DNA of 64,000 nt from a virus (Duplodnaviria; Heunggongvirae; Uroviricota; Caudoviricetes). The stretch is from IMG/VR virus record IMGVR_UViG_3300021400_002728, positions 197,154-261,153 of that record. One strand, given 5' to 3'. How positions within the stretch are numbered: position 1 is the first letter of the stretch; the number at the start of each line of letters is the position of its first letter. Position numbers and translations under genes: made by a program. Positions 31,406-41,763 of the stretch are shown in pieces. The notes under the pieces are model-generated. The model made no database searches, had not been told where the DNA came from, and saw only the letters and a list, made by a program, of their open reading frames with translations.

Positions 31406-33223
31406 TTATATAATAAACACTTGAATTGACTCATATTCTTTCTTTTGATTACCGTCTTTTCTAGTAAAATGACTAGATTTCTGTTGTAAAATAATCTCTT
31501 CTACAAAAGAATAACCTAAATCCAAGATTTGTTTATTCATATCTTTCTTAAATCTTTGATTGATTTGATAAGCAACTATCTTACAATCAGATTTCTGAAT
31601 AACTGATTTCCACCAAGTTAAAAACTCTTCATAAGAAAGATTCTCTGCACCATTATCAGTATAGATTTCAGTATTCCAATATGGTGGACAAGTAAATAAT
31701 ATATTACTAGTAAAGCTACCTTTACTTGAATCCCCATACTTAACTGTAGCATTGATATTATACTTATCAATCAAAGTATTAAGACCTTCCACAACATTAT
31801 CATTTATATCAAATCCTAAATATCTGATTCCATATTGATGACAAGTAAGCAGTCTCTCACCCCAACCAGAACAAGGGTCATATATAGTAGAAGGCTTATA
31901 TTTTTCAATAAACTGTATCATACCAGTATTATCAAATGTACTATACTTTCTAAGTTTACCAGAAATACTAAGTCCATTTAATAAGGCAAGATTAGAAAGT
32001 TGATGTGGTAACTTATCTAAATACTTGTATCTGTTTATGAATAGCTCACCTAATACCAATGGATTATCAAGCATTTCAATTTCTCTTTTAAAATACTCAT
32101 TCCAGTTAGCAAGTTTAGCTATTTGAGTCACATTCTTAATTTTGTCTGGAAGTGTGTCATGTTCAGAAAAGTCTCTGTTAAATATAAACATAAACTCTTC
32201 TTCTGACCAACATACTAGATAATTAAGATTGTTTTGCTGAGCAGTCTCTAACTTCTTTAAGTCTGATTCAGTCCATACATGAATAGCTATGTCAAAAAAT
32301 TTAGTATGCTTTGCTTTCCATTCTTCTAAAACTTTAATATCTTCTGAATTATTAGAATCAAAGAAATGACCACCATGTGTCCAAAAGAAATTACATTCTA
32401 CATATAAATCTAACTCAGGCACATACATATCACATTCAAATGGATAAACATCTGAAGTATAATGATGTACAGCATTAGGAAATATAGACTGTAATAAATC
32501 ATAACATTTATCTTCTGACTGAGATTTTCCATAGGTTCCATGCTCATGTAGAGTTCTTCTACGTTTAACCTTAAATTCTTCAGAACCTAAATATTGTCTA
32601 CTTTTGTTAGACTTCCCATAATTATCATAGCCATATCTGGACAGCATTGTAGATTTACCTTTTTCTCTAACTTCCTTAGATTTCATAGGGTTATCTACAC
32701 CATAATGCTCCATATATGATTGTTTCTTCTTTTCAAGAACTTCTGAGGAAGCATAAACATTATCTACTCCATAACGTTCTTGAACTGTTTGCTTACACTT
32801 TTCTCTATTAGTAAAAGTAGAGTTGCCATATCGCTTTTCTTTAGTAGCAGCAATTTTCTTAGCTGTTTCTGAACTAGCCATTCCAACTCCACCATGATTT
32901 TCAATAATAGTTTGTTTAATTTTCTGTTTTACTTCATCTGCTTGAAATGGATTTTCTACTCCATACTTTTCTAAATTAGTCTGTCTAGCTTTCTTTAGTC
33001 TAGACTTAGCATTTGCAGAATTTTTTTCTGACATTATTTTAGCTCTACATTTTTTACAACGTCCTCTTTGTTGATAAAGTTTACTTGGTAATATTTCAAA
33101 ATCACCATGTTCTTTACAAGTAACAATAATAGGAGTTGTATAAGATTTCCAATCTATATTAGAAAAATCATACTCTGGAAATAACTTTTCACATTTTTCT
33201 AAAAATTGTTCCTTTGTAATCAT
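31406..33223 (-). CDS. homing-type endonuclease (Zn-ribbon, KYGV repeats, Vsr/PD-(D/E)xK-like) fused to an amino-DNA-methyltransferase domain
   Basis: CKEHG..CKKC; repeated 'TNLEKYGVEN'; CDMYVPELDLYVECNFFWTH; IYDPCSGWGERL (SAM motif) and FTCPPYW (catalytic-like motif); start at MITKE behind AAGGAG. Confidence 0.8.
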   Translation of the reverse strand: MITKEQFLEKCEKLFPEYDFSNIDWKSYTTPIIVTCKEHGDFEILPSKLYQQRGRCKKCRAKIMSEKNSANAKSRLKKARQTNLEKYGVENPFQADEVKQKIKQTIIENHGGVGMASSETAKKIAATKEKRYGNSTFTNREKCKQTVQERYGVDNVYASSEVLEKKKQSYMEHYGVDNPMKSKEVREKGKSTMLSRYGYDNYGKSNKSRQYLGSEEFKVKRRRTLHEHGTYGKSQSEDKCYDLLQSIFPNAVHHYTSDVYPFECDMYVPELDLYVECNFFWTHGGHFFDSNNSEDIKVLEEWKAKHTKFFDIAIHVWTESDLKKLETAQQNNLNYLVCWSEEEFMFIFNRDFSEHDTLPDKIKNVTQIAKLANWNEYFKREIEMLDNPLVLGELFINRYKYLDKLPHQLSNLALLNGLSISGKLRKYSTFDNTGMIQFIEKYKPSTIYDPCSGWGERLLTCHQYGIRYLGFDINDNVVEGLNTLIDKYNINATVKYGDSSKGSFTSNILFTCPPYWNTEIYTDNGAENLSYEEFLTWWKSVIQKSDCKIVAYQINQRFKKDMNKQILDLGYSFVEEIILQQKSSHFTRKDGNQKKEYESIQVFII

Positions 33224-33312
33224 TTTTATTTCTCCTTCATAGAAATATAATAAGCAGCTTAGTGATGAAGGCACTATTACTCAAAGGCTCATGACTTCCT
33301 TTGCTCCCTGCA
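33224..33312 (-). ncRNA. structured 5' leader (3-way junction + kissing loop over the RBS), copy A
   Basis: covaries with 35258-35345; loop CCTTCAT complementary to loop ATGAAGG. Confidence 0.65.
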
Positions 33313-33320
33313 TTATTAAC

Positions 33321-34164
33321 TTAATTGTAGAGATACTCGTATATCTCCAATGCAGTCATTTCTTTTTCTTCGCCGGCTACACGAACTTTAATTTTTTCGT
33401 CTTTATCAAACTCACGACCGGTAATCCAAATTTTACCAGTCCAGTCTGTGGGCTTATAGTCTGCGACGTCATTCAAACCAATTTTCTGCATCTTCTTATT
33501 ACGAGAATACATAACTGAACGTCCAATTCTTAAAATCTCTGCAGCCTCTTGAACAGAGTTAGCAACGGCAACTACACCATTCATTCCCTTAAAAGGATAA
33601 ACATTATTAGACTATATCATATTCTCTAATTAGAGAACCCTACCACTTCGATTTAATAGACTGATATTAGACTAATCTCATCTAAATGCTAACCATATTG
33701 GCTCTACTCTACTTACTTCGTGCAAATGCCTTATTTTCATACCGTATTTCAGGTCCTATAGCTTTCGATAGTCGTTGAACCCGTCTCTGTTACCAAGACT
33801 TGGCTGCTGATTTTCCATTCTTATAACCCTTAGGATTTAACCATAGGTCATCCAAATTATTTTTTCTGCTTTCGCTGCATATCACGTTTAGTATTTCTCT
33901 TACGTTGTAGCTAATTTGGCATTAGGTTCGTATTCATTATAAGAATACTGTTCCAGCAATTCAATAGGGAATTTTTCACGCATGTCACCATACGCGGGAG
34001 CTTCATCCTTTAAAAACGCACTCCGTTTGCTTTATGTCTACAAGCGCAACCGATATTTTATTATTATGTTCGATTCTTTAGGCTTTCGCCTAAATACAAT
34101 GGAATATGACATTCCTCAAAGTGACACTATTGTGCGAAATGAGTCCTCGTTTAGCTGTCTCCAT
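33321..34164 (-). CDS. fragmented FtsK/SpoIIIE-like ATPase middle segment with N-terminal intein C-tag; join(34164..34093, 34071..34020, 33601..33321), 134 aa
   Basis: GGAGG RBS; reconstructed METAKRGLISHN|SVTLRNVIFHCI-EHNNKISVALVDIKQTE-FYPFKGMNGVVAVANSVQEAAEILRIGRSVMYSRNKKMQKIGLNDVADY follows the FtsK pattern between Walker A and Walker B. Confidence 0.75.
33602..34019 (-). mobile_element. group I self-splicing intron (418 nt, no internal ORF; IA-like)
   Basis: P AATTGCTGGAA (33961-33951), Q AATCAGCAG (33812-33804), R GTTCAACGACTA (33780-33769), S ATGATATAGTCT (33620-33609); P1 GGAGT/GCTCC with U.G at the splice site; P10 AAAGGATGAA/TTTATCCTTT; terminal G; splicing restores the frame. Confidence 0.9.
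34072..34095 (-). other. candidate translational bypass (ribosome hop) element
   Basis: ATT TAG GCG AAA GCC TAA AGA ATC: Ile take-off, stop inside TTTAGGC-GAAA-GCCTAAA hairpin, Ile landing 21 nt later. Confidence 0.6.
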
Positions 34165-35257
34165 TGTAATCATCACCTCCTTTTATAAACTGTTTAGTTT
34201 GAGCTATATTTTTACATTTTCTACAACAGTACATTTGATAACCTCTAGTGAAGTTAATATACTTAGTAGGTTTATTACAAACTAAACATTTCCCTTCATT
34301 ATTAGATTTTATATATGTATCATAATATTCTTTGCAAGTAATCTGTTCATTAAATCTAATATGTGCAGACAGATAATTACCATTTTGAAAAGTCTGATTA
34401 CATATTAGACATGTCATTGGATTATTTTTTATTTTAGGTACATATACAATAGTTCTTGGTTTATCATACTTAAATTTTTTATACCAATATTTATCTTTAT
34501 ACTTCTCTTCACAATACTCTAAATATTGCTTAATATCACTATATGACCATACTATAATGTTGTTTGTATCAATGCATTTTTGTTTATCAGAGTCTTTTAA
34601 TGTGCCATCTGAATTTAGATATTGATTACCTTTAACTTCTATAATATCAGCATTTATTTTAAAGTCAGGAAAATATTTATGTGTAATATTATTTGAGTCA
34701 GTATAAGTCAATATGATAGGTAAACGTTCTATAGGTATATTATGATCTTTATGCCAAATATATACGGCAACTTCCCAAGATGAATCAAATAATTGATTAT
34801 CATAACTATAATATTTTCTAGACTGTTGGATATTTTTGTCTTGCATTGGATGTTCAACACCATATTTAGCTAAACTGTTCTTCTTATGTTCAACCTTAAA
34901 ATAATCAGTTTTGAATATTTCATCTTGTCCATATTTAGCTTTTATAGTTTTCCTAATCTTAGATCTAACTTCTTTAGAACTTAATACACTTTCTACACCA
35001 TATCTTTCTAGATTAGTGTCTTTATGTTTCTGTTTACATTGTTCTGTATTATGAGAACATCGTAAGCAATATTCAAAATATCCATATATAACATTTTTGA
35101 ACTTAGTAGGTTTTCCGCAGGTTTTACAAAATCCATCATTGGTTTTATGTAAATAAGTATCATAGTATTGTTTAGTTTCTATTTTATGTGCTTGCTTAAT
35201 ATGTCCTCCAAATCCAATATTAGATTCAAATTCTTTTCCACAAATAAGACATTTCAT
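34151..35257 (-). CDS. homing-type endonuclease (Zn fingers, KYGV repeats, TnsA-like PD-(D/E)xK)
   Basis: CLICG..H...H, CKTCG; FDSSWE, YFPDF, IIEVKG; duplicated Zn module at C-terminus. Confidence 0.8.
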   Translation of the reverse strand: MKCLICGKEFESNIGFGGHIKQAHKIETKQYYDTYLHKTNDGFCKTCGKPTKFKNVIYGYFEYCLRCSHNTEQCKQKHKDTNLERYGVESVLSSKEVRSKIRKTIKAKYGQDEIFKTDYFKVEHKKNSLAKYGVEHPMQDKNIQQSRKYYSYDNQLFDSSWEVAVYIWHKDHNIPIERLPIILTYTDSNNITHKYFPDFKINADIIEVKGNQYLNSDGTLKDSDKQKCIDTNNIIVWSYSDIKQYLEYCEEKYKDKYWYKKFKYDKPRTIVYVPKIKNNPMTCLICNQTFQNGNYLSAHIRFNEQITCKEYYDTYIKSNNEGKCLVCNKPTKYINFTRGYQMYCCRKCKNIAQTKQFIKGGDDYNGDS

Positions 35258-35345
35258 GCTATTTCTCCTTAATAGAAATATAATAAAGCAGCTTGATGAT
35301 TAAGGCATCATTATCTCTTTGGTTAGCTAGACCAAAGCTACCTGT
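35258..35345 (-). ncRNA. structured 5' leader, copy B
   Basis: same architecture as 33224-33312; loop CCTTAAT complementary to loop ATTAAGG. Confidence 0.65.
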
Positions 35346-35408
35346 TATATTATTAAATAGCCTATATGAAAAAGAGACATACCAAGCTTGATATGTCTCC
35401 TTTAAATG

Positions 35409-35744
35409 TTAATTTGTCCAAACTCCATCTTTGTAATATACCGTACCTAAGTTAAAACTAAACTTCCAACCAGTTTTCATATATTTGTCGTCATATAATC
35501 CAGCGTCTATAACAGCTTCATAGTCATTTTCTGTACCACCTTCAAGTGGATTTAAAGTAAGTCGTACAAAGTATGGTTTTCCATCTCGCTGTGTATCTGG
35601 TGCAATAGAATAATAACACTGATCAGTTTCATTATAGAATAAAGTTGGAAATTTGAGTTTAAACAAAGTAAAGAGTACAATTGTTGCATCAAAAAAATCA
35701 TCTGTGCGAATAAGGTCAGTGTAGAAATCAGCGTCTTTTGTCAT
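35409..35744 (-). CDS. hypothetical protein
   Basis: ORF with AAGGA RBS. Confidence 0.7.
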   Translation of the reverse strand: MTKDADFYTDLIRTDDFFDATIVLFTLFKLKFPTLFYNETDQCYYSIAPDTQRDGKPYFVRLTLNPLEGGTENDYEAVIDAGLYDDKYMKTGWKFSFNLGTVYYKDGVWTN

Positions 35745-35841
35745 AATAATTTCCTTTCTTTTTAATTAAATAGTTCCTGCCTATAAGCATAAAAAGTTTA
35801 GGCAATGGTAAAACACATCAACCTAAACTTTTTATTATATA

Positions 35842-35875
35842 ATAATATCATGCTCCTTAATATTTGTAAATAGTT
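35842..35875 (-). promoter_or_regulatory. sigmaA-type promoter
   Basis: AACTA-TTTACA-N17-TATTAT with TG. Confidence 0.65.
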
Positions 35876-35888
35876 TTTTTGAAAAAAC

Positions 35889-37382
35889 TTACTCATTTGT
35901 GTAAGATAAGTATAAAGTTTCATCAAAAGCTCTATTAAACATAGCGGTAAACTCACCTAATCGTCTACCATCTACATCAGTATCTTCCAGTTTGTAGGTA
36001 ATAAAGTCAAAGATATAACTATTGTTTTCGCCTTCAGTAATATCGAGAATACGCGTATGTTCATTTTCATCATTGAATATAGCCATTATACCGCGCATCT
36101 TTTCAAGTAAGGCACTACCATATTGTACAGTAGAATCAGTTTTTTGCCATTTACCTTCCTGTTTAGTATTATAGACTGATTTTCTAATATAGACAGTTTT
36201 TCTGATTCTATAAGTAGAGTCAATAGGCATACGTTCTGCAAACTGTTTTCTTTGATCTGACGTAAATATTGGCCACATTGCTTGTACTGAGTCTGACCAA
36301 TCACATAGATCTGACATAAACTTACTCTTAGATATTTTATTATTTATTAAGAACTCTGATAAGTAAGTATGATTTTTCTCACTAGGATGATTAAACTCAT
36401 AGTATAGCTTAAGTAACTGTAATAATAACTTTTCCAGTCGTTCAGGAATAGTTTCTTCTATAAAAGCTCTATTAACTAAATCCTCATATGAATCTTTTCC
36501 AAGTTCAATGAGTTGGTTAACATATCTGAAACTTCCTAAGTTTAAAGAATCATCTACTTCAACATTTGATACAATTGTATCTATACCATCAGTTTCAAGT
36601 CTATGAATTAAACTTTTTCTTACATATCTAAGACTTTCACGTACATAAATATTATTTAATATAAGATACATAGAATATTTGAAACAGTTGATGTATTTTT
36701 CAGAACAATTCGCTATAGTAACAATTTGTTCTACCATAGGATCCAGTTTACCATCAATAAAATCTTTTATTCTATAAGAACTCACAGCATCAGTTAAATT
36801 ATACTTTATATTAGTACTAGCGTCTCTAAGATAAGCATTTTTTGACTTAAAGGTTTCAATATACTGTTTAAATGTTTTATAATTAGTGCATAAAGTTAAA
36901 TTGTACTTTATATCATCTAAAAAGTTATGACAATCTACAATGGCTTTAAAATAATTAGATTCTTTGCCATTAAGTTCTTTATCATGTGTAGCTTTATATT
37001 TTATTCTAGCTGATTCATAATCAGATTGATTTACACTCTTGTACTGAACATATCCATTTTCATTTACACCATCTGGAATCAAATAAAAATGTAAGCAGTG
37101 ATCAGTTAAACTTCGAGTAGCATTCTCAATAATAACAATTTCAAAATGATTTGGAGTAGCCTTATAATCATCTAGAGCAAGTACTCCCCAAATATGACAA
37201 TAAGATGCTAAGTTAAGAAATTCACTTTTATATAAAAAGTCACAAAGTCGCTGTACAACTATTCTTAAGCTAAAACGATTATAATGATTAACAATATTCT
37301 TCTCGAGATAACTCTTAGATTGCTTAAGCTTCGCAAACTCATGATCTCGCTGTGTATTATAATCAATTTCTATGCCACCCAT
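35889..37382 (-). CDS. large hypothetical protein
   Basis: 497-aa ORF with GGAGGAGG RBS. Confidence 0.85.
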   Translation of the reverse strand: MGGIEIDYNTQRDHEFAKLKQSKSYLEKNIVNHYNRFSLRIVVQRLCDFLYKSEFLNLASYCHIWGVLALDDYKATPNHFEIVIIENATRSLTDHCLHFYLIPDGVNENGYVQYKSVNQSDYESARIKYKATHDKELNGKESNYFKAIVDCHNFLDDIKYNLTLCTNYKTFKQYIETFKSKNAYLRDASTNIKYNLTDAVSSYRIKDFIDGKLDPMVEQIVTIANCSEKYINCFKYSMYLILNNIYVRESLRYVRKSLIHRLETDGIDTIVSNVEVDDSLNLGSFRYVNQLIELGKDSYEDLVNRAFIEETIPERLEKLLLQLLKLYYEFNHPSEKNHTYLSEFLINNKISKSKFMSDLCDWSDSVQAMWPIFTSDQRKQFAERMPIDSTYRIRKTVYIRKSVYNTKQEGKWQKTDSTVQYGSALLEKMRGIMAIFNDENEHTRILDITEGENNSYIFDFITYKLEDTDVDGRRLGEFTAMFNRAFDETLYLSYTNE

Positions 37383-37400
37383 ATTTACCTCCTCCTTAGT

Positions 37401-37685
37401 TTAATACATAAGTCGTGTTTCTCCATGATTAGTAAGAACAAATAACGTTTCTTCTGAGTTCTTAATCTTATAATCTTTGAGTTCATACTCATAGATCTGA
37501 ATCTCAGTATCTGTAGGAATAGATTTAAGGTATAACATATCCCACTTAATATTCATAACTTTTTCTAAGTCGTCTTCAGATGCAAAATCTTTGAATCCTA
37601 AAGTTTTTCCTGAGCTATACATAAGGCCTATAAGATTTCCAGCTTTAGAAAGTTTATAGGCGTCTCTAATCAATTTTTCTAACAT
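37401..37685 (-). CDS. hypothetical protein
   Basis: ORF with AGGAGG RBS. Confidence 0.75.
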   Translation of the reverse strand: MLEKLIRDAYKLSKAGNLIGLMYSSGKTLGFKDFASEDDLEKVMNIKWDMLYLKSIPTDTEIQIYEYELKDYKIKNSEETLFVLTNHGETRLMY

Positions 37686-37730
37686 GGCTATATCCTCCTA
37701 TTTAAGTCTTTTTGACTTTTATATCATTAA

Positions 37731-38114
37731 TTAACCTCTTTGATCAAATTCCCAACCTTTTCTATCATCATACCAGAAAGTGAGGAAAGTACAACCGTTA
37801 GATCCACCAGATGGATGAGTATATCTAAAACTTGCAGTTCCACAATAATGAGGTATAGATTCTTCTCCATCATCTGATTTACAGTATACTTCAGAGTTAA
37901 AATTAGCAATATAGATTTCTTTAAACATAAGCTTTAAGAATCCAACCTGATCAGCTAAATCTTGAGATTCAAAATCAATAATTATAATACCTCTAGATTC
38001 TTTTACTTTCTTAGTAAATTTAAGATCAGTTAGACCAGTAAGTCTTCTAAGTTCTGAATATAACTCCTCCATAGGAATATTTTCTGCCCATTCTAATAAT
38101 TTATCCTGATCCAT
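37731..38114 (-). CDS. hypothetical protein
   Basis: ORF with AGGAGG RBS. Confidence 0.75.
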   Translation of the reverse strand: MDQDKLLEWAENIPMEELYSELRRLTGLTDLKFTKKVKESRGIIIIDFESQDLADQVGFLKLMFKEIYIANFNSEVYCKSDDGEESIPHYCGTASFRYTHPSGGSNGCTFLTFWYDDRKGWEFDQRG

Positions 38115-38179
38115 ATTTATGCCTCCTTATAAATAAATGGAAGTCCAACATTAGACCTCCATTATAAATAAATAGTTTA

Positions 38180-38512
38180 TTAGTCTTTAATATAACAATA
38201 TTCGACTTTCCATCCATCTTTACCACCATGCTCAAGTTCCATATATCCCTCAAGACGAACACAAGGATCTGTACCGTCGAGACAAGATGCATAGATAGAA
38301 TAACCACCCATACCATCGAGAAAAGCTTTATTGTCACTAGAAACAATATAGCTTCTTGATTCTTCTGAATACTCCTTGTTAAAGCTATCTTGAGTAAATA
38401 CGACAACTACATGAGCTGTTTCCTTACAGATGCTATTACCGCATTTGTAACCATGCTGTCTATTGAATTCTCTCAAGTATTCTTTTGCTTCATACCAATT
38501 GATTCTTTCCAT
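38180..38512 (-). CDS. hypothetical protein
   Basis: ORF coupled to upstream gene. Confidence 0.75.
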   Translation of the reverse strand: MERINWYEAKEYLREFNRQHGYKCGNSICKETAHVVVVFTQDSFNKEYSEESRSYIVSSDNKAFLDGMGGYSIYASCLDGTDPCVRLEGYMELEHGGKDGWKVEYCYIKD

Positions 38513-38514
38513 GC

Positions 38515-39012
38515 TTAATTTCCTTTCTCAATAGTATCGTAAATATTATGATCGTATTTATCTTCATCTGGACAATCATCATCATTATCATTGCCAGTTT
38601 CAACAAAAGAATCATTTCCAAATAAGAATCTATCAAGAAGATTTTCATTAGCAAAAAGATCATCTAAAGGAATTTCTCCACAATGGTCAATATAACCATC
38701 ATTATTTTCAGCATACTCATATTCTTTACCATTCCATTCAGACTTTACCCAGTTAATTTCCGGTGCATGAATTTCTTCTACACCTTTTCTTTTAAGATAT
38801 TCAAAAAACTTATCAAGTTCTTCTCGTCCATTATCTAAGCATGCCTGATAAAAATAGTTTAACGTATCATATTCAGTATCTGCGCTCCATCCATACTCTC
38901 CACCTGAAAGAAATACTTTATGTGGTATACTGATAGAAGTATCTTTTGGAATTACTAATACATGTACACTAGAACTATTAGTTTCAAACATGCTCTGTCT
39001 AATTTCAATCAT
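38515..39012 (-). CDS. FETNSSS-motif family protein 6
   Basis: MIEIRQSMFETNSSSVHVL..GEYGW..GYIDH..FLF..S..TGNDN. Confidence 0.85.
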   Translation of the reverse strand: MIEIRQSMFETNSSSVHVLVIPKDTSISIPHKVFLSGGEYGWSADTEYDTLNYFYQACLDNGREELDKFFEYLKRKGVEEIHAPEINWVKSEWNGKEYEYAENNDGYIDHCGEIPLDDLFANENLLDRFLFGNDSFVETGNDNDDDCPDEDKYDHNIYDTIEKGN

Positions 39013-39328
39013 TGCTATCTTCCTCCATAGTATCTACGTAGATATTGCTAATTTTGCAGTAATAATTTAAGTCTTTTATAAGATCATTGACATTATCTAC
39101 AACTTCTTCATATGTTAGATCATAATCTTCAAAATATTGTAAGTTATCTGCCTCTCTTTCAATATCATCAAGATTATTTGCTAAATCAATTTCGTCATAC
39201 TCCTCAGGAAACTGTTCTCGAATTTCTCTCCAACATTTCTCAAGTATAGAAAGTACTTTTTCTACTTCGAGTTCCTCAGCTGCATTCTTTAATGCTTTTC
39301 CATTTTTTAAGGAATATCTATATGTCAT
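39005..39328 (-). CDS. hypothetical protein
   Basis: ORF with AGGAG RBS. Confidence 0.7.
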   Translation of the reverse strand: MTYRYSLKNGKALKNAAEELEVEKVLSILEKCWREIREQFPEEYDEIDLANNLDDIEREADNLQYFEDYDLTYEEVVDNVNDLIKDLNYYCKISNIYVDTMEEDSND

Positions 39329-39343
39329 TAGTATTCTCTCCTC

Positions 39344-39718
39344 TTAAAGTGAATTTCTAAAATTAACCATTTCTTTTTTTAAGTAATAATTATGAAAATC
39401 TTCATCTATGACTTGACCACCGAGAAATAGATGATTATTTTTTGTTTCAATATGTCTTACTATACAATTAGTCATAATGACGAATTTCTCAGATGAATTT
39501 GAATAATAAACCTCATCACAAAATACAATTTTCACTTCATCATTTAATTCAATTGATAATTGTGATATGTCTATGTCGGAATCTATTGTAATGCCTATCC
39601 CTAACTCTGAAATATCATGTACATAACCAGTAACCTCAAAATTTACACCATCTATATACAGTAATATAGGTACATCAACAATAGACAGACGAGTATAATT
39701 TCGTCTATCGTTAATCAT
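39344..39718 (-). CDS. PilZ-domain protein (putative c-di-GMP receptor)
   Basis: RxxxR (RRNYTR) and DxSxxG (DISELG) motifs, then VRH. Confidence 0.8.
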   Translation of the reverse strand: MINDRRNYTRLSIVDVPILLYIDGVNFEVTGYVHDISELGIGITIDSDIDISQLSIELNDEVKIVFCDEVYYSNSSEKFVIMTNCIVRHIETKNNHLFLGGQVIDEDFHNYYLKKEMVNFRNSL

Positions 39719-39743
39719 AATTTACTCCCTCTTTTTAATATTA

Positions 39744-39932
39744 TTAGCTTTCCTGATCCCAAGGCTCGAAGTCTTTTCTGCATAAATTATCCTGAATAAT
39801 ACCAGTTTCATCATTCTCTGCAATGAAATAATCACAATTTAACTGACTAGGTCCAAGATAAGTAAAGAACTTATAAGGCTTAGTCTTAGTCTGAACAGTT
39901 TCTCCGCGCTTGATGTTAGAATCAGTAATCAT
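39744..39932 (-). CDS. hypothetical protein
   Basis: ATGA overlap with upstream gene, AGGAG RBS. Confidence 0.7.
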   Translation of the reverse strand: MITDSNIKRGETVQTKTKPYKFFTYLGPSQLNCDYFIAENDETGIIQDNLCRKDFEPWDQES

Positions 39933-40504
39933 TGTATTCTCCTTTGTATGCTATCAAACATTATATTGACAAAATCTAATGTAGGACTTGCTAATATAGA
40001 TTTATCATACTTATATATAATATTATTGTCTATACTTCTAATATTGCCTGCAATTATTATTCGATCATAACCTTCTTTAGAAAAATCATAACCTTGAAGT
40101 GTTAACCCAATTAGTTCTGCTGAAAATCTAGTATATTCTTCATCAGGAAAATTGTCAATCACTACTGGTAAATCAGTTATTTCATCTCTAAATGTTGCAG
40201 TCTCATTTACAATATCAATATATGTAGTAGTGATATTCAAATTGATCATATAAATTGAACTTATACAATCAGCGTAAATAGCAGAACTATCGTGTACAAA
40301 ATGACCACTTAAACATATGGCACTGGGAAAGAAACTATCATTTGTATATTGTTTCATAGTCTGTACACATATATTATATTGTGCTGGATCTAATAACACA
40401 GGTAAATTTGAACATATATCAGTAAATCTATGTAATATCTGTCCATTTGTTGGATTATAAATCATAGACATACGACAGATTGTAAATATGTCATTAACTG
40501 TCAT
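39929..40504 (-). CDS. hypothetical protein
   Basis: ORF with AGGAG RBS. Confidence 0.75.
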   Translation of the reverse strand: MTVNDIFTICRMSMIYNPTNGQILHRFTDICSNLPVLLDPAQYNICVQTMKQYTNDSFFPSAICLSGHFVHDSSAIYADCISSIYMINLNITTTYIDIVNETATFRDEITDLPVVIDNFPDEEYTRFSAELIGLTLQGYDFSKEGYDRIIIAGNIRSIDNNIIYKYDKSILASPTLDFVNIMFDSIQRRIQ

Positions 40505-40514
40505 TATATCTCCT

Positions 40515-41039
40515 TTAATTTACCCAAATATTATCAAACAACTGACTAGTATCAACTTCTGTGTCAATTGCAAAATCTACATATACGGGTACATGTTTAT
40601 TATTAATAGGACTGATTCTCATGTAAAGAGATCCATCCTTATAGATAAGCTCTTCATTAATTGGATATTTGATCTGCTTAAGAATGTCATTAAGCTCCTT
40701 AATGTATATAACTAGCTGTTCTTCTAAGAAGCGAATAAACTGAGCGTCTTCAGCTAATCCATCATACCAATCATCTTCATTAAAATTATCTCTAGAGTCA
40801 TTGATTTTTACACGAATTTCAAACTTACCATCCCTATCATCCAGCGGCTGATCTATATACAAAATAATTTTAAGATCACCAAACTTATTTGACTTATAGT
40901 TAAGTTTCTTTTCTAGATCATTAGTAAGCTTATATATGGTATCATTAAGGTATTCAATATATTCGTCCCAATTATCAATGTCACTTGTATCTGTTGATAA
41001 TATAGTAGCAAACTTAACCTCAGATCTAATTTCGTGCAT
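40515..41039 (-). CDS. hypothetical protein
   Basis: ORF with GGAGG RBS; weak similarity to 50962-51480. Confidence 0.75.
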   Translation of the reverse strand: MHEIRSEVKFATILSTDTSDIDNWDEYIEYLNDTIYKLTNDLEKKLNYKSNKFGDLKIILYIDQPLDDRDGKFEIRVKINDSRDNFNEDDWYDGLAEDAQFIRFLEEQLVIYIKELNDILKQIKYPINEELIYKDGSLYMRISPINNKHVPVYVDFAIDTEVDTSQLFDNIWVN

Positions 41040-41066
41040 AAAATCATACCTCCGTCATTTTTATTT

Positions 41067-41100
41067 ATTATAACATGACTAAATTAATTTGTAAATAGTT
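41067..41100 (-). promoter_or_regulatory. sigmaA-type promoter
   Basis: AACTA-TTTACA-N17-TATAAT with TG. Confidence 0.8.
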
Positions 41101-41299
41101 TATTATACAGTCTTTTAACTGCATCGATATCCAATCTACCAAAATCTAAGTCTCCGTATTCTTCATCTCCAATATTATTCGCAGCTACAATAAGTTTCAT
41201 GCACACCTCACGTCCACATGCTTTCATTGTTCCATCTTCATTAAATACATCATTGTAAGCTGCTTCAAATAGCGCTAAATTTAATTCTGTTTGATTCAT
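41084..41299 (-). CDS. hypothetical protein
   Basis: ORF with AAGGA RBS. Confidence 0.7.
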   Translation of the reverse strand: MNQTELNLALFEAAYNDVFNEDGTMKACGREVCMKLIVAANNIGDEEYGDLDFGRLDIDAVKRLYNKLFTN

Positions 41300-41320
41300 T
41301 TTTCTAACTTCCTTTCTAAT

Positions 41321-41358
41321 AAAAAATTTGTGGCTACAGCTATAAAAACCGTAGCCAC
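41321..41358 (-). terminator. intrinsic terminator after the Hint gene
   Basis: GTGGCTAC..GTAGCCAC stem followed by AAATTTTTT. Confidence 0.7.
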
Positions 41359-41379
41359 GGTTTATAACACAAAAACCTC

Positions 41380-41736
41380 TTATTGCGTATATATAGCAAA
41401 TTGATGATCTGGTGCATCAGTGGTTATACACATTACAACTTCAGGATCTATCTTCTTAATAGATTTGATGATAGGTCCATCTTTAGTTCCAACGGGTCGT
41501 CCTTTATACCAGTCAAACTCTTGGTAAATGCCTTCAGCATCTATCGTATACATTTTATCATTTATGTATACGTTCCATTGATGTACATTAGAACATTTAA
41601 CTTTTCCATTGCTAAAAGTTATTTCATACATATTGTAGGATAACTTAGCTTTAGTCTTTTCAATGACTTTGTGAAATTCGCCATCAGTTCCTAAGACTAA
41701 ATCACCTACTTGAACATCTGCGATAGTCTTCTTCAT
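41380..41736 (-). CDS. free-standing Hint/intein middle fragment (class-3-like), lacking both splice junctions
   Basis: KTIADVQVGDLVLGTDG..KV (end of block A/N2), VKCSNVHQW (block B H-x-W), VMCITTDAPDHQF (block F with Cys); own RBS and terminator. Confidence 0.8.
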   Translation of the reverse strand: MKKTIADVQVGDLVLGTDGEFHKVIEKTKAKLSYNMYEITFSNGKVKCSNVHQWNVYINDKMYTIDAEGIYQEFDWYKGRPVGTKDGPIIKSIKKIDPEVVMCITTDAPDHQFAIYTQ

Positions 41737-41763
41737 TGAATAATTTCCTTTCCTTAAAATACA

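Follow-up and report, generated by a model that had tools for sequence, protein, structure and literature searches.

Two probable natural three-piece split inteins in a scattered FtsK/SpoIIIE-like ATPase gene of a jumbo phage

We analyzed a 64,000-nt stretch of DNA (the window; bases 197154-261153 of the 394,266-bp Caudoviricetes record IMGVR_UViG_3300021400_002728) and propose that it probably holds parts of two natural three-piece split inteins, which together would rebuild one FtsK/SpoIIIE-like ATPase. As expected of split inteins, separate genes encode intein fragments fused to halves of one host protein. The two outer fragments do not make a complete Hint domain, as the N-terminal tag (N-tag) and the block-G part of the C-terminal tag (C-tag) come to only ~22-27 aa; the middle piece, of 118 or 196 aa, is a third gene that carries no extein. 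The architecture, homology, conservation and selection described here are established from the data, and from them we infer assembly, catalysis and splicing. Positions are window coordinates (genome coordinate minus 197153) unless given as genome coordinates, (-) denotes the minus strand, and a slash marks a splice junction.

The middle piece of one of these inteins (intein 2) is a Hint core gene at 41380-41736 (-), hereafter core 2, which encodes 118 aa and lacks both block A and block G. An earlier note on this DNA had described the gene as the interior of a Hint domain with its own ribosome-binding site (RBS) and terminator, and direct reading confirmed this description. The purine-rich RBS read from the sequence (AAGGAAAGGAAA, 41744-41755 (-)) lies 7 nt before the ATG, and an intrinsic-terminator-like stem-loop with a T-run follows the gene (41330-41358 (-)). 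The protein begins MKKTIADVQVGD and ends ..HQFAIYTQ; its motif CSNVHQW holds His52 (B10) and Trp54 (B12), and VMCITTDAPDHQF holds Cys103 (F4). An AlphaFold (AF2) model of core 2 had a mean pLDDT of 88.5, and the top 11 Foldseek matches to this model were all inteins (TM 0.69-0.72), the best being the class 3 DnaB inteins 6BS8 and 6RIX (TM 0.70, E about 1e-6). A profile search of PDB sequences also returned 6RIX (E 3e-9). Compared with 6BS8, core 2 spans about residues 16-126 of the 139-residue chain, with only the first and last strands absent. We conclude that core 2 has a Hint fold and is a class-3-type core without both terminal blocks. The Pfam family Hom_end_hint matched core 2 weakly (21.6 bits against a cut-off of 32.1) and Intein_splicing (PF14890) matched nothing in the whole genome, so Pfam-based screens would miss these intein pieces.

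The case made in the earlier note depended on conservation of this core, and the core is conserved. A word-indexed search recovered it as a stand-alone gene in 55 clusters (69-137 aa, mostly 118-126 aa; 62-92% identical) on contigs of up to 467 kb. In an alignment of 22 sequences, C48, H52, W54, N55, C103, D110, Q112 and F113 are invariant; all 22 start with MKK (one with MQK) and end in ..(I/V)(Y/F) plus a short variable tail. For a comparison between complete genomes we used three other complete jumbo-phage records (332, 290 and 467 kb; G001, G002 and G003), and intein relatives were collected by an exhaustive HMMER search. Between the four complete genomes, core 2 has a dN/dS of 0.04-0.23, with synonymous sites near saturation; the gene is under strong purifying selection.

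The site to which core 2 belongs is indicated by P0066, a 746-aa FtsK/SpoIIIE protein (PF01580, E 7e-18) encoded by a single ORF in a 156-kb contig. P0066 is the contiguous form: its intein lies between ..ATQKP..ILRSN and CGFRAFCGR and reads PLALDTLVET..(core)..IYTHN. Homologues of core 2 are placed between ..SN/PL.LDTLV and ..THN/C in every case. Both matching tags are encoded in the phage genome, the N-tag 17.7 kb and the C-tag 1.6 kb outside the window. The N-piece (piece D, start at genome 180426) reads ..CTQRNDATVLPG and then, beyond a group II intron, continues in frame with IIQNN/PLSIDTLVEVKD and a stop codon, so that its end reads ..VLPGIIQNN followed by a 12-aa tag that starts with Pro1. 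The C-piece (piece E, start at genome 195648) reads MLNILEKVFKRKGGDLNKSGTTMDKNMIFTHN/CAARI.., with a basic leader ahead of the tag ..DKNMIFTHN/C; the start codons of the C-pieces were deduced from RBS positions. A MAFFT fragment alignment sets the N-tag, core 2 and the C-tag one after another along the contiguous P0066 intein, which they cover without gaps or overlaps. By homology, core 2 belongs to the IIQNN/C-site intein whose tags are PLSIDTLVEVKD and ..MIFTHN/C.

The defining features of class 3 inteins are the lack of a nucleophile at position 1 and a Trp-Cys-Thr (WCT) triplet (PMC2807308). In this genome, G001 and G002, position 1 of intein 2 is Pro, not Cys, Ser or Thr (PLSIDTLVEVKD). 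The triplet is complete: W54, two residues after H52, and C103, in VxCITT, are both invariant in the 22 sequences, and the Thr at G5 is found in ..FTHN/C of the C-piece in four genomes, a register that we checked against 6RIX and P0066. The tags also hold a conserved terminal Asn and a conserved +1 Cys. Judged by these residues, the intein at the IIQNN/C site falls within the class 3 definition (PMC2807308; PMC7891396). The class-3-type Trp and Cys that the earlier note placed in the core are thus upheld, while the Ser that it assigned to G5 gives way to Thr once the core is set with its cognate tags.

The pieces of the other intein (intein 1) meet at the GK/S of a Walker A motif. Its C-tag, METAKRGLISHN, is a 12-codon block G at 34129-34164 (-) followed by a +1 Ser codon at 34126-34128. 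The ORF starts with an ATG at 34164, reads METAKRGLISHN/SVTLRNVIFHCI and went unannotated because it has only 24 codons up to a TAG. The start of its C-extein, SVTLRNVIFHCI, occupies 34093-34128 (-), ends in an Ile codon (AUU, 34093-34095) and is FtsK-like sequence of the kind that follows a Walker A GK. The earlier note had taken this ORF for a block G with a +1 Ser, and SVTLRNV for the post-GK part of an FtsK P-loop. Both proposals were borne out by relatives: P0066, which has no intein at the GK site, reads GGGK/SVAIQN there, and the two-piece relatives P0091 and P0069 start with a different ~190-aa Hint domain (MKWNEIHTG..) that ends ..TGRYCVNDLTNHN/SVTINNII.., which is post-Walker-A FtsK sequence. 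Their inteins terminate in ..NDLTNHN/S (P0091) and ..NGLIHHN/S (P0069). The earlier note had also raised the prospect of a contiguous intein at this site in related phages; an intein is present there in P0091 and P0069, but in two pieces. Read against these homologues, METAKRGLISHN/S joins the C-terminal end of an intein to what follows GK in an FtsK-like P-loop, and is not a chance resemblance.

The middle piece of intein 1 (core 1) is a stand-alone 196-aa ORF with its own RBS at genome 303296-302709 (-), which reads MVKQWKDVKVGD..LPCFCISTDTGRYET and a stop codon. Core 1 stops after ..GRYET where the two-piece relatives run on with ..GRYCVNDLTNHN/S, and the residues ET are present on both sides of this break (..GRYET and METAKRG..). 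A full-length match to core 1 was found in an open frame of 197-208 aa in each of the three relatives searched, ending ..YET in the two that were read out. The N-piece is an ORF ending in GxxGxGK plus 10-15 aa, which the earlier note had predicted but not located in the window: it ends TGGGK/AIYIDQSVEVQSDEV and a stop, the tag being a 15-aa block-A stub at genome 318715-318671 (-). The WCT triplet is not found in intein 1, which has Leu at B12 (..AYNHVLL) and Ser at G5; position 1 is Ala (Ser1 in G003), and a Cys is assigned to F4 by alignment of ..PCFCIST. By these residues intein 1 is class-3-like at most and not a WCT intein. Sequence continuity and homology place the METAKRGLISHN tag with this second intein and its 196-aa core 1, which is unrelated to core 2.

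This assignment departs from the earlier note, which had core 2 use the METAKRGLISHN tag and an N-piece ending in GK at the Walker A site. Such a pairing draws on tag patterns that are generic and common to both sites (AIYIDQSVEV and PLSIDTLVEV on the N-side, LISHN and IFTHN on the C-side), and we consider it highly improbable. Core 2 homologues always sit between ..SN/PL.LDTLV and ..THN/C; METAKRGLISHN continues the sequence of core 1 (..GRYET, then ETAKRGLISHN); the two-piece relatives have the other Hint domain directly before ..HN/S; and four genomes hold a complete cognate set for each site. The concept of a three-piece intein put forward in the earlier note nevertheless fits the data, at two sites in the same ATPase.

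The host gene of both inteins is scattered. Matches to P0066 fall at six separate minus-strand locations of the genome and are not colinear with it: residues 1-249 at genome 319960-319193 (-) (piece A), residues 287-375 at genome 230749-230483 (-) (window 33596-33330), residues 383-474 at genome 180357-180082 (-), residues 492-615 at core 2 (-) and residues 616-746 at genome 195579-195187 (-). The sixth match is weak, Hint to Hint, and falls on a contiguous intein of piece A. Within the window, the C-extein of intein 1 (piece B) resumes as exon 1b (EHNNKISVALVDIKQTE plus 1 nt, 34020-34071 (-)), which ends in U before a group I intron, and continues in exon 2 (33321-33601 (-)), an FtsK-like segment that runs through ..YPFKGMNGVVAVAN.. 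to ..EIYEYLYN and a stop (piece C; dN/dS 0.03-0.12). The ATPase pieces are spread over about 140 kb of the 394-kb genome, 15-90 kb apart, and none of these segments recurs in the genome. A further split of the ATPase falls between the end of piece C (..EIYEYLYN, window 33321) and the start of piece D (MGWFDHQ.., genome 180426), with no intein remnant on either side, and the mature ATPase would consist of A+B/C and D+E as separate chains. Upstream of piece D, G001 has an endonuclease gene whose first residues are likewise MGWFD...

The same scattered pieces and tags are present in the three other complete jumbo-phage genomes. Their N-tags at the Walker A site read GGGK/AIYIDQSVEVQSDEM, GGGK/AIYIEQEVEVL and GGGK/SLFVEQEIDVDNE, and at the IIQNN site IIQNN/PLSIDTLVEVKD and VIQNN/PLSIDTLVEVKE, each with a stop codon directly after the tag; their C-tags are METAKRGLISHN/S, MSTNKGLISHN/S, ..MIFTHN/C, ..MVFTHN/C and ..AIFTHN/C. 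Core 1 and the exteins of pieces C, D and E have a dN/dS of 0.03-0.25, again with synonymous sites near saturation. As dN/dS is low in piece E downstream of an in-frame TAG, this part too appears to be translated. One could suppose that the pieces are decaying relics of a gene killed by mobile elements, given their in-frame stops, two introns, endonuclease genes and extreme fragmentation. Decay is very unlikely, as every piece has a dN/dS of 0.03-0.25, even past the in-frame TAG, RBSs and start codons are intact, and four complete genomes have the same architecture.

Relatives of intein 2 show four architectures: contiguous, core plus block G plus C-extein, N-extein plus block A plus core, and stand-alone core. 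The second form is represented by P0057, P0062, P0064 and others. For P0064 the gene is complete, and a DUF7487 endonuclease gene lies directly ahead of it. The third, which ends ahead of block G, is represented by P0060, a complete internal gene, with P0091 as a candidate of the same form. Because these intermediate forms are complete genes in other phages, each of the two break points exists singly in nature. An intein whose sole split-off part is a short C-fragment, as P0060 implies, is not known to us from nature.

Based on these data, we propose how the two three-piece inteins would act. Each core would bind the N-tag strand and the C-tag strands and so complete the Hint fold. In intein 2, core 2 would give His B10, Trp B12 and Cys F4, and the C-piece would give Thr G5, a His, the terminal Asn and the +1 Cys. 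Cys103 would attack the Asn-Pro1 bond, leaving the N-extein as a thioester on the free core, and the acyl group would then be taken by Cys+1 of the C-piece. Cyclisation of the tag Asn and an S-to-N shift would produce the peptide bond that joins the exteins, both tag peptides would be released and the core would end chemically unchanged. Since the P-loop is cut between Lys and Ser, an active ATPase should need ligation. Turnover is conceivable because the core ends chemically unchanged; that extein-free class 3 cores are multi-turnover, tag-directed protein ligases working through a Cys103 acyl-enzyme, in two or three orthogonal sets, is a tentative idea that we consider doubtful. A complex prediction with the N-piece tail, the C-piece head and the core scored 0.58, and a control in which the C-piece was replaced scored 0.65; we count this neither for nor against assembly.

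A different account of the same assembly is that the Hint pieces come together without splicing and serve as a non-covalent clamp for the ATPase fragments. Split-intein fragments bind tightly (PMC7891396), and the break between pieces C and D, which has no intein, implies that the ATPase tolerates at least one non-covalent joint. An uncut clamp would, however, leave a Hint domain in the P-loop between Lys and Ser, and the catalytic residues (Cys F4, His B10, Trp B12, Thr G5, the terminal Asn and the +1 Cys or Ser) are invariant despite saturated synonymous sites. We therefore regard a clamp without splicing as unlikely and protein splicing by two three-piece inteins as the probable function of these genes.

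Several observations weigh against this proposal. Engineered three-piece inteins are usually inefficient. A +1 Cys is rare among class 3 inteins (PMC2807308). Within intein 2, a TAG interrupts the frame of the C-piece five codons past the junction, and in intein 1 the C-piece contains a TAG/TAA gap; both call for a putative translational bypass, and the N-piece of intein 2 depends on splicing of the group II intron. In addition, contiguous inteins have nothing that corresponds to the C-piece leader, with its 22 aa ahead of the block G strand, and both tag sets share [AP][IL]xIDxxVEV and [LI][IF][ST]HN, so that the two sets, taken from homology to be orthogonal, may cross-react.

Introns in the same gene raise the alternative that RNA trans-splicing through split introns connects the pieces, and that the three-ORF appearance is an artefact of reading the DNA. 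A group I and a group II intron are indeed present in this gene. Each intein piece, however, comes with an RBS, and with a start and a stop of its own that fall exactly on Hint strand boundaries, a terminator follows the core gene, the pieces are non-colinear on one strand, and beside the tags we observed no intron half but adjoining endonuclease genes. We find RNA trans-splicing extremely unlikely.

With respect to known systems, natural inteins were described as known only as one or two genes in a 2023 preprint on engineered three-piece inteins (bioRxiv 10.1101/2023.01.30.526203), and our search for three-piece, tripartite or jumbo-phage inteins, within the library of papers covered, found no natural three-piece case. 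The first split class 3 intein was reported in 2020, after 1701 class 3 inteins had yielded no split variant. Gut 'Jug' phages of 360-402 kb, the subject of a 2026 paper, are noted there to have genes interrupted by group I introns, endonucleases and 'putative inteins'; the present architecture is not described. A natural three-piece intein would thus seem to be a new arrangement, of a design so far known only from engineered inteins. In those (Ssp DnaB, Sun et al. 2004, cited in PMC2677866; Npu DnaE and gp41-1, bioRxiv 10.1101/2023.01.30.526203), a short N-tag, an extein-free middle and a short C-tag reconstitute splicing, a layout like the one proposed here. The engineered systems are man-made and class 1, whereas the phage form is natural and conserved, belongs to the class 3 type and would occur at two or more sites of a single protein.

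Intein 2 resembles the class 3 inteins MP-Be DnaB, Msm DnaBi1 (6BS8) and MchDnaB-1 (6RIX) in its Hint fold, its WCT triplet, a Cys at F4 as the presumed first nucleophile and its insertion in an ATPase of the helicase/translocase kind; MP-Be DnaB, the founding member, also shares Pro1. Those inteins are single contiguous chains with +1 Ser or Thr, whereas intein 2 has its triad on two polypeptides, its scissile bond on a third, and a +1 Cys. The split class 3 intein likewise comes from metagenomic, phage-like DNA and carries out class 3 chemistry with non-covalently assembled fragments, but it has two pieces, each with an extein, and here there would be three, with the catalytic core extein-free. 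The atypical split inteins AceL-TerL and VidaL (6VGV) are also broken after block A, at about 12-25 aa, and P0057 and P0064 have only this AceL-TerL-type N-side break; AceL-TerL and VidaL keep block G on the large fragment, and the three-piece phage inteins do not. As in fractured genes (Dassa et al. 2009, PMC2677866), endonuclease genes adjoin pieces of the broken gene. Fractured genes consist of two adjacent halves around one endonuclease gene, whereas here each intein has two breaks and the pieces are reordered over about 140 kb.

Inteins are textbook single-turnover elements of one or two pieces. A natural, conserved three-piece form, if true, would mean that evolution has parted the catalytic Hint core from both substrates, as would be required for an intein to become a ligase. 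Engineers would also gain short ligation tags with cognate cores, of ~12 aa on the N-side and, on the C-side, of 12 aa (Walker A intein) or an 18-32-aa leader ending in block G (class 3 intein). One set would use class 3 chemistry, and the number of orthogonal core/tag sets is probably two or more. The gene itself would be an extreme case of survival under layer upon layer of selfish DNA: a cis intein, two trans inteins, introns of groups I and II, endonucleases and bypass-like gaps.

The cis intein is a contiguous class-3-like intein in piece A (L029, genome 318731-319189 (-)), which reads PLGLNTIV .. AAYIYQ/T and lies inside the P-loop between CVGS and TGGGK, five residues ahead of the split-intein junction. 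It has Pro1 and, by alignment, a Cys at the F4 position; its last residue is Gln here and Asn in G002 and G003. The 624-nt group II intron of piece D is ORF-less (L027, genome 179459-180082 (-); RF02004 93 bits, RF00029 60 bits), separates ..ATVLPG from IIQNN/PLSIDTLVEVKD and is absent in G001 and G002.

The group I intron in the window (33602-34019 (-)) is 418 nt long and ORF-less. In its P1, GGAGU pairs with GCUCC; the 5' exon ends ..ACGGAGU, its U lying directly before the 5' splice site, and the final intron bases are AAUAAUG, with a 3' G. RF00028 matched it over the full model, ending at 33602, with 25.3 bits (E 1.8e-4), below the gathering score of 50; Rfam scans of the whole window and of 3 kb returned no intron, and RF00028 emerged only when 441 nt were scanned. 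Precisely these 418 nt are missing from G001 and G002, whose intron-less alleles read KQTEFYPFKG. By its core, its splice-site bases and its precise absence from an allele, we identify 33602-34019 as a group I intron. We considered and rejected an endonuclease ORF inside this intron, which lies downstream of an endonuclease gene.

That gene, at 34151-35257 (-), is a free-standing homing-endonuclease gene (DUF7487, PD-(D/E)XK-like) whose end overlaps the start of the C-tag gene by 14 nt; its PD-(D/E)XK-like motif was read by eye, and it may relate to the Vsr-like family of PMC2677866. Endonuclease genes adjoin this C-tag gene and both N-tags. A second DUF7487 homing-endonuclease-like gene, with a methyltransferase-like C-terminal part, lies directly downstream of the FtsK-like piece (31406-33274 (-)). 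In G001, the upstream endonuclease is a 120-codon open frame (L012 1062-1421) in which the first and last parts are kept, resembling a deletion derivative.

Coding gaps interrupt pieces B and E. In this genome, an 18-nt gap (34075-34092 (-)) made up of UAG, a hairpin, UAA and AGA lies between AUU (34093-34095) and AUC (34072-34074) and is absent in G002; the FtsK-like frame resumes after it and is interrupted further on by the group I intron. An in-frame UAG with a short insertion (6-24 nt) occurs at six sites, each directly after an Ile or Val codon, where relatives have no insertion (window 34072-34095; L026, genome 195537-195552; L012; L017; L011; L019). In piece B the gaps read AUU UAG, 15 more nt, AUC (this genome, window 34095-34072 (-)), AUU UAG, 18 more nt, AUU (G001) and AUU UAG CUC (G002); in piece E they read AUU UAG GUC (this genome), AUU UAG AUC (G001) and GUA UAG, 10 more nt, GUA (G003), the last a 13-nt gap that changes frame. 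The closing codon matches in four of the six (AUU..AUC, AUU..AUU, AUU UAG AUC and GUA..GUA) and agrees at 2/3 positions in the other two (GUC, CUC). The 18-nt gap can form a 7-bp stem (z-score -3.6), and G001 has the same stem with a different loop; in both long gaps the stem opens with the two final bases of the take-off codon and spans the UAG. We propose these gaps as candidate gene-60-like translational bypass sites or short hops. The bypass-type features occur at 34072-34095 and the five other sites, which show no homology to T4 gene 60. The coding gaps lie next to endonuclease genes, and the sequence past them is under purifying selection. Reassignment of TAG or TAA was rejected, as stop use is ordinary (332 TAA, 71 TGA and 42 TAG in minus-strand ORFs of at least 100 aa) and the G003 gap changes frame.

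The record as a whole has direct terminal repeats, a completeness rated at 100% and ~30% G+C, with nearly all genes on the minus strand; a megablast search of GenBank phages with 9.5 kb of sequence gave no match. Elsewhere in the genome, a second FtsK-like gene ends ..ILICGGTG/CMEENTPVMMYDTLVH and a stop, a 41-aa intein C-part (..DGSVFHN/SGKS) starts another ORF, and an orphan Hint protein of ~165 aa lies between that ORF and the second FtsK-like gene (genome about 296940-297005, 285874-286368 and 268461-268600 for the three parts). These parts probably make up a third multi-piece intein, with Cys1. A tRNA cluster at genome 104893-125227 comprises 39 tRNA genes and a transfer-messenger RNA (tmRNA); one of its tRNAs has the anticodon UUA, which would read UAA, yet TAA is the main stop codon of this phage genome.

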